A stretch of 9,905 nt of DNA, taken from IMG/VR virus record IMGVR_UViG_2711768022_000003. One strand, 5' to 3'. The notes below the pieces were generated by a model that had not been told where the DNA came from, ran no database searches, and saw nothing but the letters and a program-made list of their open reading frames with translations. This stretch comes from a virus. Lineage: Duplodnaviria; Heunggongvirae; Uroviricota; Caudoviricetes. Numbering within the stretch: position 1 is the first letter of the stretch; each line of letters begins with the position of its first letter. A program made the translations under genes and the position numbers. Shown here piece by piece: positions 85 through 8,087 of the stretch.

Positions 85-1332
85 TTAACTGATCGGCATT
101 ACACCACCGGGACGCGGATTCATATCTTCCAGGTCGCGGCAGTCATTGGAAGAGTAAATTCCCCAGTTGATCCCGGTGGCGTAGGCTTCAAAACGGGACT
201 TCATATCCCCGCGCAGTAACGCCCCGGCGTTAAATTTGGCGTAATAAACGCCCTGCTTACTTTTTCGTACCAGTCCGGTGTTGATCCGCTGTTCGATGCG
301 GGTCAGATACGGCACCAGTGAATAGTTGATAAATCCCAGCCCCAGCTCTTCGATATTGTTGAAGGTGGCGCGATCGGTGTTCTGCACCATGTGCAACGGC
401 ACCCGGAACAGACGACAGATTTCTTCCAGCTGAAACTTGCGGGTTTCCAGGAACTGACTGTCCTCGGCGTTCAGCGCCATCGACTTCCAGTCCAGCCCCA
501 TTTCCAGAATCATCGGGCGGTGAGCATTGCCAAGCCCCGTGTGACACTCCTCAAAATCTTTCTTCAGACGCTCGTAAGCATCCGGCGTGAGCTTTTGTTC
601 CGTACGCAACACACCGGATGTCACCGCACCATTACTAAACAACCTGGCACCGTGCTCCTCGGTTGCCGCTGCCAGTGAAATGGCCTCACGCGCATACGCA
701 ATGGGATTCAGCCCGACAAGTCCATCCAGCGTCAGGGTGCGCACATGCCAGATTTCATTCTGGGTCAACACATCCACGGAACCATCCGGAAACGTCACCT
801 GATAAACCGGCTGCCACTGGCTGTTCAGCTTCGGTTCCACACAGCCCGGATCTATCGGAAGAAGCTCCACCACTTCTCCCAGTGCCTTTACCTTGTAGGC
901 GTAAAAATTCCCCCGTAGACACAGGCAGACAATAACCAGCTCCCAGAATTCCTGCGGTGTCATGTAGCCATTAGGTTTTGCCGAAACCAACTTATGCAGT
1001 CGTTCATCCACCGCCCGTGTTTTCAGGGTACCGCTGATTTTGTAGAGACTGCAGGGCAGCATACCAACAGACTCTGCCAGCACCCTGACGCAAGAATAGA
1101 CCGCCGTCAGGCGCATGGCCCGCTGGCTACTGATCCGCTTTCCGGTATAGGTGTCGTATGACAGCCCGATAGCATCAGCAGTTCTGCTGGCGTGGTCACC
1201 GGCACATCGCTTTTTCGTTGAAATAATCCCGAAAAGAACACTATTTACCTCCGCCGACAGACTGCCGTGTACGGTCGAGATATCGCGCCACCAGCCACGA
1301 CCAGAACAGGCACAGCGCCCCGGCAACAACAA
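85..1332 (-). CDS. Phage portal protein, HK97 family (start codon unresolved)
   Basis: Long minus ORF immediately after terL. Translation carries portal-like segments (NSVLFG near the N-terminus, [55 protein letters not shown]). The listed start at 1330-1332 is TTG; the first in-frame ATG is at 1114-1116, after conserved-looking N-terminal sequence, so 1332 is an upper bound. Confidence 0.8.
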
Positions 1333-1434: not shown

Positions 1435-3168
1435 TTAAAGCGAGCGGATCCCGTAGGACTCAATGTGGTCAGACAGCGTGTCTTCTTTCTCGTACAGCAT
1501 GGCTCTGCCAACCGCCATAATCAGCGCAACTGCACCATCGATTTTGTTTTCCGCCTGCTCTTTGACGGGTTTCACCACATCATCGTTACCCGGCATGTTT
1601 TTGCCGACCACGTTGCCGATACACCAGGTCATGATGGGATTGCCGTCATGATGAAAACGTCCCGATTCAATCGCTGCTTCCAGCTCTTTCATCGGATCGG
1701 ACATATTGGTGAAGTTCTGGACGATAGTGACGGGATTCAGGTCTTCATCAGCAAGGTCATGTGACAACCCGGTCGCCCCGAAGGGGTCGATGGGTGACTC
1801 ACTGACCGGGCTGATTTTGTTCGCCGCTTTGGCCTCCTCGAGGATGTAGCGATAATCCACCTCCGCACCATCGGTAACGGTCAGAACGCCCATTTCCACC
1901 CATTTCTGAAAGCGTTCGGCTGTCCGTCGATCTTCATTTTTCTCGACGCTGTACACCGTGTCATACGGTACCCAGAAACGCGGGGCCACACTGTAGTAAT
2001 GCGTTTTACCGTCAATCTCGCGGGTATAAAGTCGCGCCATGCTGTTCATATCCAGCTTACGCGCCAGGTCAAAGGCCAGAATGCACGGCTGCCCCTCGAA
2101 CTGCTCAAGGGTCAGTGATTTATCCTCGCAGCTCTGCCAGCTCACCAAGTTGAAATACGCCGAACGCGCCGACACCCAGATATTGAGGTGTTTTGTTTTA
2201 AAGACGTTTGCCAGACGGGCGTTATTTTTCGCACGCTGCTGCTGACTTAACAAAAATTCGCGATAAACCGACACGCCAATATTTGGATTGGCTTTTTCCA
2301 GCACCTGCGGGCCGGTCCAGTCGTCACCTTCATCAACGGTATAGATGATCCCGAACAGTTCATCGTTAGGCACCGAGCCGTTGAGCATCTCGATGACTTC
2401 CCGCCGCTTGTCGTAGCACGGCCCCTCAATGTTGTACCCGGCGGTGGTGATGGCCCACATCAGTGGCTGACGTCGCGCCCCCATCCCGGTAAGCATTGTG
2501 GTATAAAGCGCATCGGTGGCATGCTCGTGATATTCATCAACCACGGCACAGTGGGGTGATGAACCATCACCTGGGTTGCCGATCAGCGGTTCAAACCGCG
2601 CGCCATCCTCCGGACGGTTCATGTTTGAGGCGTTAACCTCAATCCCGAACGCTTCCGTCAGCATGGGTGTGCGTTTACACATCAGTCGCGCCGGGCGAAA
2701 GACTTCCCACGCCTGTTTCTCTGTCGTGGCACCGGAATACACTTCCGCGCCAAACTCGTTATCACAGGCAAAACAATACAGGGCAACACCGGCAGAGATT
2801 GCTGATTTGCCGTTCTTACGGGGGATTTCGGTGTACACCTCCCGGAAGCGGCGCAACCGGGTGCCTTTATTGACCCAGCCAAACGCACAGCAGATCACAA
2901 ATAGCTGCCACGGCTCCAGCGTGATGGGCATCCGTTTGAATGCCCACTCCCCCTTGGTGTGCGGCAACAGCTGAATAAATTTCGCGGCCCGTTCAGCCAG
3001 GTCCTTGTCGAAGCGGTAACGAAACGACTTACTTTTTTCCGCCATCAGGTCATCAAGATGGCGCTGGCAGGCCTGAATCACAAACTGGCAGGCAACAATC
3101 TTTCCGCGCACGACATCCCGGGCATACTGATTTGCAGCATTTACGTTGGGGTAAGATTTCCGGCTCAT
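1435..3168 (-). CDS. terL: Terminase large subunit (577 aa)
   Basis: 577-aa ORF with ATG start overlapping the terS stop (ATGA at 3165-3168). Size and position between terS and portal fit a phage large terminase; assignment is by gene order and overall resemblance, not by a motif I can cite exactly. Confidence 0.9.
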
Positions 3169-4420: not shown

Positions 4421-4810
4421 NNNNNNNNNNNNNNNNNNNNNNNNNNNNNNNNNNNNNNNNNNNNNNNNNNNNNNNNNNNNNNNNNNNNNNNNNNNNNNNN
4501 NNNNNNNNNNNNNNNNNNNNNNNNNNNNNNNNNNNNNNNNNNNNNNNNNNNNNNNNNNNNNNNNNNNNNNNNNNNNNNNNNNNNNNNNNNNNNNNNNNNN
4601 NNNNNNNNNNNNNNNNNNNNNNNNNNNNNNNNNNNNNNNNNNNNNNNNNNNNNNNNNNNNNNNNNNNNNNNNNNNNNNNNNNNNNNNNNNNNNNNNNNNN
4701 NNNNNNNNNNNNNNNNNNNNNNNNNNNNNNNNNNNNNNNNNNNNNNNNNNNNNNNNNNNNNNNNNNNNNNNNNNNNNNNNNNNNNNNNNNNNNNNNNNNN
4801 NNNNNNNNNN
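4421..4810. other. Assembly or masking gap (390 N)
   Basis: Uninterrupted run of n from 4421 to 4810; it interrupts the endolysin and the 5' half of Rz. Confidence 0.99.
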
Positions 4811-4900
4811 ACCACCTGGGCCAGTGATTAACACAGATGCTATAGCAACAGCCCCACCACCAATAGCAGCTGCAACAGCCTTGCGTAATGATGGCGACAT
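4811..4900 (-). CDS. SAR endolysin (phage-21 R21-like lysozyme), N-terminal 30 codons only
   Basis: ATG at 4898-4900 overlaps the holin stop (TAATG). N-terminus [30 protein letters not shown] is a Gly/Ala-rich signal-arrest-release domain resembling phage 21 R21 as recalled. The rest is in the gap. Confidence 0.8.
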
Positions 4901-5115
4901 TATTCACCTCTCGCAGCCTTACGCTTGTCTTCTCTTATTTTGAAATACAGATTTGTCAGATAAGTCAGAAGCCCCAGAAGCAGACTTCCCAGCACACCAA
5001 TCGCAGCCCACTGTGATGGACTGACCTGATCCAACCACTGCAAAAACCAGTAGCCGGCACTGCCGGCGGAGGTGCCGTAGGCAATGCCTGTTGATATTTT
5101 TTCCATCTGATACAT
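4900..5115 (-). CDS. Class II holin / pinholin (S21, EssD-like), 71 aa with dual-start motif
   Basis: Translation [71 protein letters not shown] resembles phage 21 S21 and DLP12 EssD as recalled. Met1 and Met4 give the typical antiholin/holin dual start. Two TM segments and a charged C-terminus. Confidence 0.9.
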
Positions 5116-5144
5116 ATCCCGCCCCCCGACAGACCTGTGCTATC

Positions 5145-5182
5145 GGAAAGAAAAAAGGCCATCAGCAAAACTCTGATGGCCT
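5145..5182 (-). terminator. Rho-independent terminator upstream of the lysis cassette
   Basis: Perfect 9-bp stem ggccatcag (5157-5165) / ctgatggcc (5173-5181) with 7-nt loop; on the minus strand it is followed by TTTTTTCTTTCC (complement of 5145-5156). Confidence 0.65.
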
Positions 5183-5290
5183 GAATCACCTTTACCAATA
5201 TTGTATGAAAAAACACGCACGACTAATTGACAATAATTTTCATTTCCATTAAAAAAGATCGCGTAGCATTCTTAATTCATGAGGAACTTT

Positions 5291-5356
5291 ACCCGCCAGC
5301 AATCTGAGTAGCGAAAGCTGTTCATCCCCAATGTTTTTGCTGGCGGGTCCTTTTTT
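5291..5356 (+). terminator. Plus-strand-oriented terminator-like hairpin (11-bp perfect stem plus T6)
   Basis: acccgccagca (5291-5301) pairs perfectly with tgctggcgggt (5338-5348). The 36-nt loop contains an agc-GAAA-gct mini-hairpin. The stem is followed on the plus strand by cc + tttttt (5351-5356). On the minus strand no T-tract follows. Confidence 0.3.
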
Positions 5357-5795
5357 CTACGGTCCTCCTCCCCGGAGGGGGGCATTTCATTATTTTTCTA
5401 ATCGTTACTGGTGAGAAGGCGGAAGAAAAAGCCAGTTCTTCGCCCCTAAATAACAGCATGATTCCAGTCCATGCAAAATCTGATTTCCAGCTCACACATA
5501 CCGAGCACTGTACAAAAAACCGCCAGCCAAGGCAGTTAAGAGTGTGTTCCCGGGGTTTGCTTAGAATATTTTGTAAGTTGTCCGAAGAGATATTTACAAC
5601 ACCAGAATGATGAATCATCAGTCCCCTGCCAGAGGTTCACTACGTAACCTGACCGACAATGCACCATTCTGGTGCTGAAAAAAGAGCACTGGAACTGCAA
5701 CAAAACAACATCACAGAACAGGAGATGGTAAGGAGTCAGACATTCCCACACAATATTGTGTCAGTGCAAATAACAACCTTCGTCTCAAATCTCGC

Positions 5796-5870
<75 letters not shown>

Positions 5871-5873
5871 ATA

Positions 5874-5949
<76 letters not shown>

Positions 5950-5951
5950 GC

Positions 5952-6028
5952 TGGCCCACCACCGAGGACTCGAACCTCGCACCGTCAACTTAGAAGGTTG
6001 ATGCTCTATCCGGATGAGCTAGTGGTGG
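5952..6028 (-). tRNA. tRNA-Arg (anticodon UCU), 77 nt
   Basis: CCACCACTAGCTCATCCGGATAGAGCATCAACCTTCTAAGTTGACGGTGCGAGGTTCGAGTCCTCGGTGGTGGGCCA: acceptor CCACCAC/GTGGTGG, anticodon loop CTTCTAA, T-loop TTCGAGT, CCA encoded. Unusual C1-G72 first pair. Confidence 0.8.
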
Positions 6029-6029
6029 T

Positions 6030-6106
6030 TGGTGGCCCTTGCTGGACTTGAACCAGCGACCTGGCGATTATGAGTCGCTCGCTCTGACCAACTGAGCTAA
6101 AGGGCC
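6030..6106 (-). tRNA. tRNA with CAU anticodon, most likely tRNA-Ile2 (lysidine type, reads AUA), 77 nt
   Basis: GGCCCTTTAGCTCAGTTGGTCAGAGCGAGCGACTCATAATCGCCAGGTCGCTGGTTCAAGTCCAGCAAGGGCCACCA. Anticodon arm GCGACTCATAATCGC and T-arm GGTCGCTGGTTCAAGTCCAGC resemble E. coli ileX rather than elongator Met as recalled. Ile-versus-Met identity cannot be settled without a classifier. Confidence 0.8.
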
Positions 6107-6115
6107 GGAGGCAGA

Positions 6116-6144
6116 ATAATAACCATATGTCATCACATCTGCAA
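6116..6144 (-). promoter_or_regulatory. Candidate sigma70 promoter for the tRNA array
   Basis: On the minus strand: TTGCAG (complement of 6139-6144), 17-bp spacer, TATTAT (complement of 6116-6121), then 9 nt to the mature 5' end of the first tRNA. Motif-only prediction. Confidence 0.3.
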
Positions 6145-6192
6145 ACTCATCTGACCACCAGCACGTTTAACGTCCTGTGCCGTTTTTCAGGT

Positions 6193-6220
6193 ATAAAAAA
6201 ACCCGCTCATCGGCGGGTTT
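6193..6220 (-). terminator. Intrinsic terminator downstream of the ORF6N gene
   Basis: Perfect stem aaacccgc (6199-6206) / gcgggttt (6213-6220) with 6-nt loop; on the minus strand the GC core is followed by about 7 T (complement of 6195-6201). Confidence 0.6.
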
Positions 6221-6295
6221 AAGCTGTGTGGCGTAGTAACCACTCTTAACAGGATATTCAACTTTTTACGATCGTAAAGTTTTCGGAAAAAATTT

Positions 6296-6859
6296 TTAAA
6301 ACCGCATCAACCGCTCCACCAGTTGCTCTTTACGGGCAACGATCCACCCGTGTTGCTCCAGATAAAATTTAAACCGTTCCAGAGTACATACCATCGCATC
6401 GGCGGGTACCTTTTCCGTGAACTCAACCTGACCGTGTTTATCGAAGTGGCTCAGTAATGCGCATCCATCATTTTCGATAGATGTGTTTTGTGCCGCTGGT
6501 GGCTGTTTCTGGTTGAAATAACAGTCTTCCAGTTTTTCGAACACTTCCCACGCCTGATCGGTTTCGAGCATTTTGGCGTGACGGGCTGCGCCACGTTCTG
6601 TCCAGAGGATGAGGGAGCGAACGTTACGGGCAATTTTCACAGAAACTCTTAAAGAGTTTTCGTTCTTCAACTCTCGTAACGCATCACCTTCTATCAGGAA
6701 AAAATGTTTACCTTCTATAAACCGTTCTTTGTTTCGATTGAAATTGTTTGTCAAACGCTGGCGCTCTGTTCCGTACAAATCAGCCAGCAGCTCTGTTGTC
6801 ATGACAGGAAGATGGTTATGCGTAAGTGACGGGAGTTTTTCAATAGACGTGCGATTCAT
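6296..6859 (-). CDS. ORF6N-domain protein (phage antirepressor-like DNA-binding protein), 187 aa
   Basis: Start chosen at ATG 6857-6859 (AAAGGA 7 nt upstream); the ORF-track start at 7057 is GTG with no SD. N-terminal half (VMTTELLADLYGTERQRLTNNFNRNKERFIEGKHFFLIEGDALRELK ... SLILWTERGAARHAKMLETDQAWEVFEKLEDCYF) matches the ORF6N / KilA-N-like pattern from memory. The C-terminal ~70 aa are unassigned. Confidence 0.65.
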   Translation of the reverse strand: MNRTSIEKLPSLTHNHLPVMTTELLADLYGTERQRLTNNFNRNKERFIEGKHFFLIEGDALRELKNENSLRVSVKIARNVRSLILWTERGAARHAKMLETDQAWEVFEKLEDCYFNQKQPPAAQNTSIENDGCALLSHFDKHGQVEFTEKVPADAMVCTLERFKFYLEQHGWIVARKEQLVERLMRF

Positions 6860-7065
6860 AGACATGTCCTTTCGAATATTTTGATTTACCCCTTTTGAGA
6901 GGGTGACCGGGCGCTCAAAACCGTCGAAAGTCGGCGGGCGTATTTCCATTGCTGGTATTGTATTAGCCGCACACCCGGTCATAAACCAAGAATTCTGGAC
7001 ACAAAAAAACCACATGGCTATCGGGTGTGGATACCGCTTTCGAGGTGTTTTGAGCACCGCGGGGA

Positions 7066-7094
7066 AATGTAAACTGCAAACCTGAAACTGTCAA
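7066..7094 (-). promoter_or_regulatory. Candidate sigma70 promoter for the ORF6N moron
   Basis: Minus strand: perfect -35 TTGACA (complement of 7089-7094), 17-bp spacer, -10 TACATT (complement of 7066-7071). About 200 nt upstream of the ORF6N start. Confidence 0.3.
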
Positions 7095-7218
7095 CACCGT
7101 CAGGTTCCAATCATCGGGTGGTGAGACGCACAGGGTTGGAACTACCGGGAAACCGACCGGCGAGCTTTTCAGCTCCCCCATGCGCCCCACCATAATTCAG
7201 ATGTGCGCGTGCATACGA

Positions 7219-7244
7219 CAATAAAAAACACGCTCGCGGCGTGT
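7219..7244 (-). terminator. tR'-like terminator downstream of the late promoter
   Basis: Stem acacgc (7228-7233) / gcgtgt (7239-7244) with 5-nt loop; on the minus strand it is followed by TTTTTATTG (complement of 7219-7227). About 75 nt downstream of the predicted pR' -10. Confidence 0.45.
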
Positions 7245-7305
7245 GTCTGTCGCGGTCTCTATCCGGGGTTCCAATCCCGACGCCAGATTTTGCTGGCGCG
7301 TGAGG

Positions 7306-7335
7306 AATATAGCCCCGGACAATGTGTCTGGTCAA
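7306..7335 (-). promoter_or_regulatory. Late promoter pR'-like (probable Q-utilisation region)
   Basis: Minus strand: -35 TTGACC (complement of 7330-7335) starts 5 nt after the Q stop; 18-bp spacer; -10 TATATT (complement of 7306-7311). Position immediately downstream of Q matches lambdoid pR'. Confidence 0.5.
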
Positions 7336-7339
7336 GCAC

Positions 7340-7726
7340 CTACATAATTCGTTCTACGTATCTGTCCATCTCCAGCCGGATATCAAGCATCATCAACATG
7401 CCATCAATAACCCCTTCCGCTTTCTGCAGGCGCTTGCCAATACAGGTATCCGAACACCCATGTTTCCGTGCCAGACTCATAAAAGTCATTCCACCTACGT
7501 AATAATCCACCAGCAAATCGTGCAAATCCTGATTTTTCTTGTTCAACCGGGCCATACAGCCACAAATTATCATTGCATCATCATCAGAACACTGAGGGCG
7601 TGATTTCACTTTCGACGGAATTAACCCTTTAAAACCAGCAGCGATCGACGCCCAGGATACATCTTCATGAGTGTTTGCAGCCCAAGCCCCCCACCGTTCC
7701 ATAACCTGCTGAATATCACGCGCCAT
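7340..7726 (-). CDS. Q: Late-gene antitermination protein Q (phage 82 / QuuD-type), 128 aa
   Basis: Start chosen at ATG 7724-7726 (AGGTGA 5 nt upstream) rather than the upstream ATG at 7745-7747. Translation [61 protein letters not shown] ... [23 protein letters not shown] resembles DLP12 QuuD as recalled. Overlaps the rusA 3' end by 11 nt. Confidence 0.88.
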
Positions 7727-8087
7727 CGTTATCACCTGTGATTTCATAAATCTTCACGCCCAGTCGCCCACCAGGAACGAGCTGACCGCGCACAATATTG
7801 ATTTCATCAAACTGCTCGTCGTCTATGAGTAGTCCGGCATGCGTCAGCGCATCCAGTGGTGCTTTCAGGATATTGTCCAGGTCACGACGGCGCTTATCCG
7901 GTGGCTCTGCAATAATCTTTATCGCCAGCCTTCCGGACAGGTTTAATTTCAGCCGCTGCTGGCGAACAATTAGCGTCACATCACGGCGATAACGCTCACC
8001 AACTTTTGATACAAAATATGTGCTGCCACGACGTCGCCAGTAAGTATTCACCGTCGGCGGATAAGGTAAAATAAACTCATGGCGCAT
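7716..8087 (-). CDS. rusA: RusA Holliday-junction resolvase (123 aa)
   Basis: ATG at 8085-8087 with GGAGG upstream. Translation carries the RusA-type acidic catalytic cluster ([11 protein letters not shown] ... LLIDDEQ) and the expected length. Nin-region position upstream of Q. Confidence 0.88.

Follow-up and report, generated by a model that had tools for sequence, protein, structure and literature searches.

The window, a stretch of 9,905 nucleotides (nt) held as IMG/VR virus record IMGVR_UViG_2711768022_000003 (Caudoviricetes), carries all of its genes on the minus strand and corresponds to a late-region junction of a lambdoid prophage. The locus considered here lies between the gene for the antiterminator Q and a tRNA array, and comprises, in the direction of transcription, a candidate promoter, a leader containing a structured RNA of the sRNA-Xcc1 class, a single gene coding for a 187-amino acid (aa) protein with an ORF6N domain, and a closing terminator (7094..6193; minus strand, as for each feature of the locus). 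A sequence-only reading of the same DNA had described this arrangement as a self-contained moron of the lysogeny-expressed type, for which anti-repression, superinfection exclusion or a defence-related role were suggested as possible functions. The studies reported here point to an antirepressor cassette gated by an antisense RNA.

The gene itself (6859..6296; ATG at 6859, stop codon at 6298..6296) is preceded by a Shine-Dalgarno (SD) sequence, AGGA, at 6870..6867, spaced 7 nt from the ATG; an alternative in-frame ATG at 6865 lies only 1 nt from the same SD, and a mechanical choice of the GTG at 7057 as the start codon yields a product of 253 aa. The 187-aa form is that called by the Prokaryotic Genome Annotation Pipeline (PGAP) in Escherichia coli EC12. 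The ORF6N domain, an assignment that the sequence-only reading had staked on a profile search, was borne out by a match to Pfam PF10543 (E 8.9e-21; 74.4 bits against a cut-off of 27.8) over residues ~14-98, and the designation of the gene as antirepressor-like is further based on a match to phrog_2379 ('anti-repressor') running end to end over the profile (E 3e-85) and on homology to AnrP of Gifsy-1 (STM2616/SL2578), with which BLASTP recorded 49% identity over 184 of the 187 residues (E 7e-58). Homologues at E ≤ 0.001 numbered 4661, mostly from enteric bacteria, the best being 99% identical and from Shigella sonnei.

The N-terminal half of the protein shares 68% identity with the antirepressor ORF26 of the Shiga toxin (Stx) phage P13374 and 46% identity with Ant of VT2-Sakai, both of which possess C-terminal domains that differ from that of the 187-aa protein; the latter domain is common to Gifsy-1 AnrP. 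The previous description of the C-terminal ~70 aa as unassigned holds in so far as neither Pfam nor NCBIfam provides a family (in NCBIfam, none for the whole protein or for its C-terminal 74 aa), and fails in so far as the domain is one shared with AnrP. Structure prediction with AlphaFold2, a check that had been recommended, gave a confident ORF6N fold for residues 10-115 and, beyond a disordered linker (116-130), a small C-terminal domain (131-187) consisting of a beta-hairpin plus two helices with a predicted local distance difference test (pLDDT) score of ~65. A sequence search of the PDB with the protein gave no match even at E ≤ 1, and a Foldseek comparison of the model with the PDB, conducted with the whole chain and hence with the disordered linker included, gave none at E ≤ 0.001. 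Alignment of the homologues indicated that the AnrP-like family is a mosaic, in that ORF6N residues ~31-80 occur in several sharply distinct versions, this variable part being joined to a near-invariant segment, LILWTERGAARHAKMLETDQAW, and the C-terminal domain; these versions suggest recombination inside the gene. Full-length homology to AnrP makes antirepression the best-supported of the functions originally proposed, and by analogy with Gifsy-1 AnrP the protein would inactivate a prophage repressor and thereby induce the phage.

The TTGACA promoter placed about 200 nt upstream by the sequence-only reading was recovered by a promoter scan as a sigma-70 candidate, TTGACA (7094..7089)-17-TACATT (7071..7066), with 10 of 12 consensus matches, the end of its -10 hexamer lying 207 nt from the ATG and the predicted transcription start (~7060..7058) falling at the foot of a hairpin designated a1 below. 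Both hexamers are kept in four relatives despite a diverging spacer, and the promoter is credible because of such comparative data, which include the positional conservation of TTGAC in other bacteria reported below.

Two terminators bracket the remainder of the cassette. The first, in the leader (7030..7003), is a weak hairpin on folding, with the stem CCACA/UGUGG enclosing an 11-nt loop and followed by U7, and has undergone a compensatory change in EC12 (CCGCG/UGCGG). An anti-terminator hairpin appeared plausible in the EC12 leader, and was dropped as a candidate when it proved not to be conserved in the window. The loops of the leader terminators, both in the window (7010..7030) and in other bacterial loci, have a common motif, CCCGAYAG or CCUCCGUCAA, similar in sequence to the 3' arm of the outer stem of Xcc1. 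When the read-through leader was folded, this stretch was base-paired to the 5' arm of Xcc1, which hints at an alternative structure that would couple termination to RNA folding. The second, closing terminator (6220..6193) has an 8-bp stem, AAACCCGC/GCGGGTTT, at 6220..6199, with a U-run extending to 6193, and folds at -12 kcal/mol (z = -3.2). The claim of a strong intrinsic terminator is thus sustained, its placement right after the stop codon being in error, since 75 nt intervene. Weak Rfam matches to Trp, Phe and Leu leaders at 6193..6266 were rejected, the terminator hairpin alone accounting for them.

Between the leader terminator and the gene lies a structured RNA element of ~85 nt (6981..6897) that matched the Rfam family sRNA-Xcc1 (RF02221) over all positions of the model (1-87 of 87) at 6980..6897, with 77.4 bits against a cut-off of 53. 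Its outer stem pairs 6981..6971 with 6914..6904; hairpin 2 bears the loop CUUUCGA (b', 6930..6924), a junction, GUUUUGAGC (a', 6921..6913), separates hairpin 2 from the outer stem, and beyond the outer stem comes a CACCC 3' tail, a feature shared with C4 antisense RNA. No Rfam match to C4 or c4-2 was obtained at 6897..6981, even at E ≤ 10. The element lies 38 nt ahead of the ATG at 6859 on the same strand with no promoter-like site between them, from which we infer that it is co-transcribed with the ORF6N gene. Because the promoter falls between an upstream C4 element (vide infra) and Xcc1, the '200 nt' separating it from the gene are no spacer.

That this stretch is coding, either as the 48-aa 'AntB2' of P13374 (PHROG 35956) or as an extension of the ORF6N protein to 253 aa, is hardly credible. 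The frame is open from the GTG at 7057, phrog_35956 matches residues 15-62 of the extension (E 2e-28), and antB2 is annotated over the element in P13374; against this, the stretch matches an RNA covariance model with conserved structure, contains a hairpin followed by a U7 terminator, and precedes the ATG at 6859, the start chosen by PGAP for the 187-aa form and the one that the SD spacing fits. The sRNA-Xcc1 copy of E. coli O157:H7 EDL933, for which 40,293 RNA-seq reads are listed at a ribosome coverage of 0.02 (PMC5331693), is an abundant untranslated RNA in the lysogen. The stop-free frame also differs among the 55 elements surveyed below, a weak test with so short an element and not a discriminating one.

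Both exposed segments of the Xcc1 RNA have complements on either side of it. Upstream lies the a1 hairpin, GGUG-CUCAAAA-CACC (7058..7044), the loop and flanks of which, GCUCAAAAC (7055..7047), are complementary to a' in 9 pairs, 100% paired and invariant in four close relatives; this is followed by b1, UCGAAAG (7043..7037), complementary to the hairpin-2 loop, so that both sites fall within the initial ~25 nt of the leader. Downstream lies the a2 hairpin, CCCU-CUCAAAA-GGGG (6903..6889), with a loop (6899..6893) complementary to a' in 7 pairs, again 100% paired, and then b2, UCGAAAG (6875..6869), which overlaps the SD of the ORF6N gene. The order along the transcript is a1, b1, terminator, the RNA with b' and a', a2, and finally b2 on the SD, and the minimum-energy fold of the read-through leader has a1b1 paired in cis with a'b'.

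A four-way alignment of the window with EC12, Nil2 and P13374 was near-invariant save at three short places that change together. The Xcc1 loop CUUUCGA of the window is accompanied by UCGAAAG at both the leader site and the SD site; the loop CUACUGA of EC12, RM8082 and O157:H7 Z869 by UCAGUAG at both; and the loop CUACUUG of Nil2 and P13374 by CAAGUAG at both. The b'/b1 and b'/b2 helices each consist of 7 pairs, 5 of them changed on both sides and 100% paired, and the covariation signal was lost on sliding the partner columns by 1-3 positions. The junction a' and its complement likewise vary together across taxa. Taken at the level of sequence, the elements and their order, their complementary and covarying segments, and a b2 that overlaps the SD show a pairing network centred on Xcc1.

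The same design recurs well beyond these phages. The conserved Xcc1 core pattern, AATACAANACCNNNNNNGGNAAT, was scanned over one genome per species and returned 120 loci, about half of which were chance matches removed by an outer-stem rule; 55 elements were kept, the window included, and 51 of these came from outside the E. coli phage loci, Rfam confirming 47 of the 51 and leaving 4 under threshold. Their sources include Xanthomonas, Pseudomonas, Neisseria, Pasteurellaceae, Enterobacterales, Desulfovibrio and Acidobacteria, among others, and neither C4 nor isrK was found within the 8-kb locus of any Rfam-confirmed element from outside the E. coli phages. The hairpin-2 loop took 48 distinct sequences in the 55 elements. 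A perfect loop complement of at least 7 nt was present within 140 nt upstream in 69% of the 55 (2.6% of non-cognate pairs), and within 60 nt downstream in 45% (1.6% of non-cognate pairs). When a junction complement was additionally required just 5' of the loop complement, joint a and b sites were detected upstream in 45 of the 55 (82%, against 2.3% non-cognate) and downstream in 27 of the 55 (against 1.0%). In other taxa also, the downstream b2 abuts the SD of the next open reading frame (ORF). A hairpin plus T-run separates b1 from the RNA in 41 of 47 loci. In other bacteria, 33 of 44 loci (75%, compared with 2.8% of random windows) have TTGAC at a distance of 35-51 nt upstream of a1. Outside the E. 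coli phages the promoter-RNA-gene unit does occur alone. The Xanthomonas-type cassettes, represented by 12 loci of the Xanthomonadaceae, have clear a1/b1 sites and a leader terminator, and no recognisable b2 at the downstream SD, be it that of a SymE toxin gene or of others; control in cassettes of this type may operate on termination rather than translation.

Domains identified in the products of the next genes (n = 47) were Bro-N (9), ORF6N (6), Rha (4), AntA (4), KilA-N (1) and SymE toxin (3), all but the last of these belonging to the usual antirepressor repertoire. A tandem pair of sRNA-Xcc1 copies was found in a metagenome-assembled genome of the Desulfovibrionaceae (713..1047 of the locus), and a paper on Xylella reports five tandem copies in a single genomic island (PMC12189769), so that arrays of such units exist.

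These data bear directly on two other explanations. In the literature, sRNA-Xcc1 is described as a trans-acting small RNA under HrpG/HrpX control, a discrete RNA of ~88 nt in Xanthomonas (PMC2996969) and of ~88-100 nt across Xanthomonas and Xylella vesicles (PMC2996969; PMC12189769), with bacterial and plant targets predicted by the Xylella work (PMC12189769). Together with its abundance in EDL933, this favours an independent sRNA with host or plant targets, the proximity of an ORF6N gene in the window being mere hitch-hiking. We consider that quite unlikely. A hypervariable loop that matches same-strand sites at a fixed distance in most loci is what would be expected of a private cis-linked target, and not of one conserved in the host; genes of antirepressor type or toxin genes are consistently found next to the RNA; and a discrete, stable RNA is equally compatible with control of the c4 type.

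The second is the plain moron, in which the ORF6N gene would be transcribed constitutively in the lysogen, insulated by its terminator, the protein acting there in exclusion, defence or a similar role with the RNA motifs as incidental features. A single gene bracketed by a promoter and a terminator fits this description, as do the several genomic settings of the cassette (following Q, within the nin region and within the early-left operon), and PADLOC returned weak PDC-S05 matches (E 1.4e-7); these last were at the domain level, confined to the ORF6N domain, and were not taken as evidence for a defence role. A plain moron is nevertheless improbable, given that the variable loop of a curated leader RNA covaries with both the SD of the gene and a leader site, that a terminator stands between promoter and gene in the 41 of 47 loci noted above, and that a constitutive antirepressor would destabilise lysogeny. 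In Gifsy-1, moreover, basal anrP is transcribed and not translated, a transcriptional fusion giving 280 Miller units and a translational fusion 4 (PMC4825925). What survives of the self-contained moron is that the unit has its own promoter and terminator and occurs alone elsewhere; what does not is its character as a plain lysogeny-expressed conversion gene, the gene being probably gated by RNA.

The 480 nt after Q, when scanned with Rfam, yielded four curated elements, each above its gathering score, and those upstream of the promoter constitute a second unit of like design. A pR'-like promoter, TTGACC-18-TATATT (7306..7335), begins 5 nt past the Q stop codon and aligns with the isrK promoter of Gifsy-1, and likewise with the VT2-Sakai and E. 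coli loci. It is followed by isrK RNA (7299..7223; RF01394, 77.5 bits against a cut-off of 50; fold -26 kcal/mol), with which the c4-a1b1 target motif, comprising the a1/b1 hairpins, overlaps (7312..7260; RF03163, 50.1 bits against 46.7). The hairpin previously designated tR' (7244..7228) is real, and is the IsrK terminator. Beyond it lies a C4 antisense RNA (7197..7114; RF01695, 71 bits against 45; fold -44.9 kcal/mol, z = -5.1), and then a downstream b2-type site, GAUUGGAAC (7112..7104), after which there is neither a ribosome-binding site nor a gene. The b1, b' and b2 segments of this C4 unit covary three ways, as GGAAC in the window and EC12, AGGAAC in TUM9757, and GGCGUC in Gifsy-1 and VT2-Sakai, and this covariation served as the positive control for that of Xcc1.

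Homology to loci of the Gifsy-1 type runs through GAUUGGAAC and then stops, and in EC12 a relic ATGA of the lost gene start is still present at that site. An ATG at 7193, inside C4, occupies the exact position of the Gifsy-1 orf45 start. The ORF that it opens (7193..6963; 76 codons) covers the second promoter and the leader as well as half of Xcc1, and stops 104 nt ahead of the ATG at 6859 in another frame; because it ends inside Xcc1, the coupling of orf45 to anrP by an overlapping AUGA, as in Gifsy-1, is gone. BLAST comparisons divided the leader into two blocks of a mosaic, with their boundary at the promoter (7094..7066). Since homology ends after GAUUGGAAC, EC12 retains the ATGA, and the blocks are two, the window is, by alignment, an IsrK-C4 unit that has lost its gene and is fused to a separate promoter-Xcc1-gene cassette. 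The C4 RNA, now geneless, may be left with no targets except other prophages, reached in trans, or transcripts that read through into the Xcc1 cassette.

The layouts of relatives agree with such a history. Gifsy-1 has the order Q, IsrK, C4, anrP, isrJ, tRNA; E. coli TUM9757 has Q, IsrK, C4 and an ORF6N gene, with no Xcc1; VT2-Sakai has ninE, IsrK, C4, ant, roi; Nil2 has ninE, IsrK, C4, antA, promoter, Xcc1, antB, roi; and P13374 has IsrK, C4, ORF29, Xcc1, antirepressor, kil. The window shares with EC12, RM8082 and O157:H7 Z869 the order IsrK, C4, no gene, promoter, Xcc1, ORF6N gene. An IsrK-C4-antirepressor module after tR' is standard in Gifsy-1 and many E. coli prophages, which disposes of the view that the cassette was inserted at an arbitrary point; on the alignments, it is the gene of this module that the Xcc1 cassette has replaced in the window. 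Of 5426 complete E. coli genomes, 1349 have a match to part of the studied region, O157:H7 and Stx phages among them. The GenBank note that the Nil2 ant gene is 'disrupted by a putative bacterial retrotransposon' was not upheld: the inserted segment is the promoter-Xcc1 unit, in which nothing resembling a retro-element was seen, albeit with no test aimed at one. In Z869 (2838..3093 of the locus) the cassette is succeeded by tRNA-Met and the STnc100 and AgvB (anti-GcvB) sRNAs, a neighbourhood dense in phage regulatory RNAs.

The presence of pR' upstream raises the prospect that the gene is expressed only within the Q-dependent late transcript, the internal promoter being unused and the RNA elements relics of recombination. 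The gene does lie downstream of pR' with only terminators between, which Q-modified polymerase ignores; the Gifsy-1 isrK promoter, the equivalent of pR' here, drives anrP by read-through of the IsrK terminator (PMC4825925); and the C4 unit is demonstrably without a target gene. Exclusive dependence on Q is very doubtful all the same, as the -35 and -10 hexamers are kept while their spacer diverges, the -35 is positionally conserved in loci with no nearby Q or pR', and all three Xcc1 pairing sites have co-changed in this lineage, a joint change that implies ongoing selection.

Comparison with known systems would place the cassette among c4-type controls. Citron and Schuster reportedly described in 1990 the immI operon of P1 and P7, in which the c4 antisense RNA precedes icd and ant. 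Features common to the two systems are a structured RNA of ~80 nt upstream of an antirepressor gene in one transcript; an outer stem, two inner hairpins, a single-stranded junction and a CACC-type tail; two recognition segments directed against upstream a1, b1 and downstream a2, b2 sites, the latter at a ribosome-binding site; and specificities that differ among related phages by covariation of RNA and site. The differences are that the RNA of the window belongs to RF02221, which lies outside any clan and gave no C4 match, whereas C4 and c4-a1b1 share the Rfam clan CL00128; that hairpin 1 of Xcc1 has a strongly conserved internal loop, AAUACAAYACC...GG.AAUA, which C4 lacks; and that b2 in the window falls on the antirepressor gene's own SD, with no icd-like upstream ORF.

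With the isrK-orf45-anrP region of Gifsy-1, the window shares a position directly after Q, an IsrK RNA plus a C4 (orf45/STnc1160) region, a homologous protein of equal length, a short terminated RNA together with a read-through mRNA (both predicted in the window), and a tRNA downstream. By way of contrast, ~210 extra nt (second promoter, decoy, terminator and Xcc1) part the IsrK-C4 unit from the gene in the window, and no isrJ match follows the gene. The short IsrK RNA of Gifsy-1 acts in trans as an activator of translation, and expression of AnrP raises the antQ-operon mRNA and induces the prophage (PMC4825925). The immunity region of satellite phage P4, where a processed CI RNA pairs with seqA and seqC, located up- and downstream of itself on the same transcript (PMC4825925), similarly has self-flanking complementary sites and a terminator in the leader; CI differs in acting by premature transcription termination of the replication genes. 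The sRNA-Xcc1 of Xanthomonas campestris is of the same RNA family by covariance model, the contrast being between a literature in which it is trans-acting, virulence-linked and provided with many predicted host or plant targets, and evidence from the window for a private cis-linked target. A paper on APSE phages mentions incidentally that an sRNA-Xcc1 precedes an ORF6N gene, and a preprint on Xanthomonas integrons places one upstream of symE and states that regulation must differ from that by SymR. No paper linking sRNA-Xcc1 to control of the c4 type was found in the literature searched, which did not include the original description of 2011.

The reading that we prefer, at a probability of roughly 0.7, is that the region is an antisense-RNA-gated antirepressor cassette which follows the logic of P1/P7 immI and Gifsy-1 isrK-orf45-anrP and deploys an RNA of the sRNA-Xcc1 family. 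Transcription from the promoter at 7094..7066 would start near 7059, most transcripts stopping at 7030..7003 to give an a1b1 RNA of ~55 nt, the counterpart of IsrK. Read-through would generate the Xcc1 RNA, which is probably excised and stable, in the manner of C4, for which RNase P does the cutting. By pairing with a2/b2, Xcc1 would block initiation at the ATG at 6859, so that the lysogen probably makes Xcc1 RNA and not antirepressor protein. The a1b1 sites would compete for Xcc1, acting in cis or, when carried by the short RNA, in trans, and the balance between a1b1 and a2b2 would set the timing of antirepressor synthesis; once translated, the antirepressor would inactivate the prophage repressor and induce the phage. 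Q-modified transcription from pR', reading through all of the terminators, would flood the system. The IsrK-C4 unit would be a second system of like design, its own gene lost on recombination of the Xcc1 cassette.

Several considerations weigh against this scheme. Within the window alone the promoter match is at chance level (9 sites compared with 7.7 expected from shuffles), the leader terminator is thermodynamically weak and does not exceed shuffled sequence in stability, and the close relatives supply only three specificity variants. The wide-set sites were located by a complementarity search for which non-cognate comparisons are the sole control, and a clear downstream b2 is missing in roughly half of the 55, the Xanthomonas cassettes in particular, from which it follows that blocking of the SD cannot by itself account for control throughout the family. 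The direction of control, with Xcc1 repressing and a1b1 relieving, is drawn by analogy with P1 c4 and Gifsy-1 IsrK, and the sign of individual steps could differ; indeed, it is the state paired in cis that is translationally silent in Gifsy-1, such that the logic may differ in detail (PMC4825925). Transcript, processing and translation at the window locus are predictions, and antirepressor activity is that of a homologue with 49% identity, the presumed target repressor lying outside the window.

The genes on either side conform to the late-region setting. The gene order of the window begins with a DnaB-like helicase, followed by RusA (8087..7716) and Q (7747..7340; PF06530), and on the far side of the cassette by the tRNA array Met-Arg-Thr-Gly (6106..5796), a P21-type holin (5115..4900), a lysis region partly masked with N, and then an HNH endonuclease, the terminase subunits and the portal, all on the minus strand. 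A promoter-like site, TTTGCA-18-TATTAT (6116..6145), stands between the cassette terminator and tRNA-Met, and may provide the tRNA array with a promoter of its own. The gap of ~680 nt between the array and the holin (5115..5796) corresponds to the place of stx in Stx phages; its sole ORF, of 98 aa (5618..5322), has neither a Pfam nor a PHROG match, and several terminator-like hairpins occur there, for example at 5182..5156 and 5537..5518. A run of 390 N (4421..4810) hides most of the endolysin region, from the holin to an Rz-like ORF.

The protein and the IsrK-C4 context are of known kinds; what is new is the Xcc1 unit as a variant of the c4 kind, which calls for a reinterpretation of the RNA family. 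With rather less assurance than for the locus itself, we lean towards the view that sRNA-Xcc1 (RF02221) represents a second, hitherto unrecognised class of c4-type 'immunity' antisense RNA rather than a trans-acting virulence sRNA. Each copy would be portable and complete in itself, comprising a promoter, a leader with the a1b1 decoy, a leaky terminator, the RNA with its hypervariable loop, and a2b2 at a ribosome-binding site, and privately gating an adjacent antirepressor gene (ORF6N, Bro-N, Rha, AntA or KilA-N) or SymE toxin gene across the Gamma- and Betaproteobacteria and beyond, and in the window two units of different RNA families would be stacked behind pR' to give a layered RNA control of induction.

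For the locus, a moron of unknown function is converted into a concrete, testable switch for prophage induction, and in the Stx phages, where the region recurs, induction controls the release of toxin. Were the wider proposition true, an Rfam family annotated as a virulence or cross-kingdom sRNA would turn out to consist of antisense regulators on the P1 c4 design, linked in cis to the antirepressor and toxin genes that they control, a second RNA family would join the c4 paradigm, and work on sRNA-Xcc1 target prediction in Xanthomonas and Xylella would be redirected. The many loop variants would then predict RNA-based groups of hetero-immunity or cross-talk among co-resident prophages.

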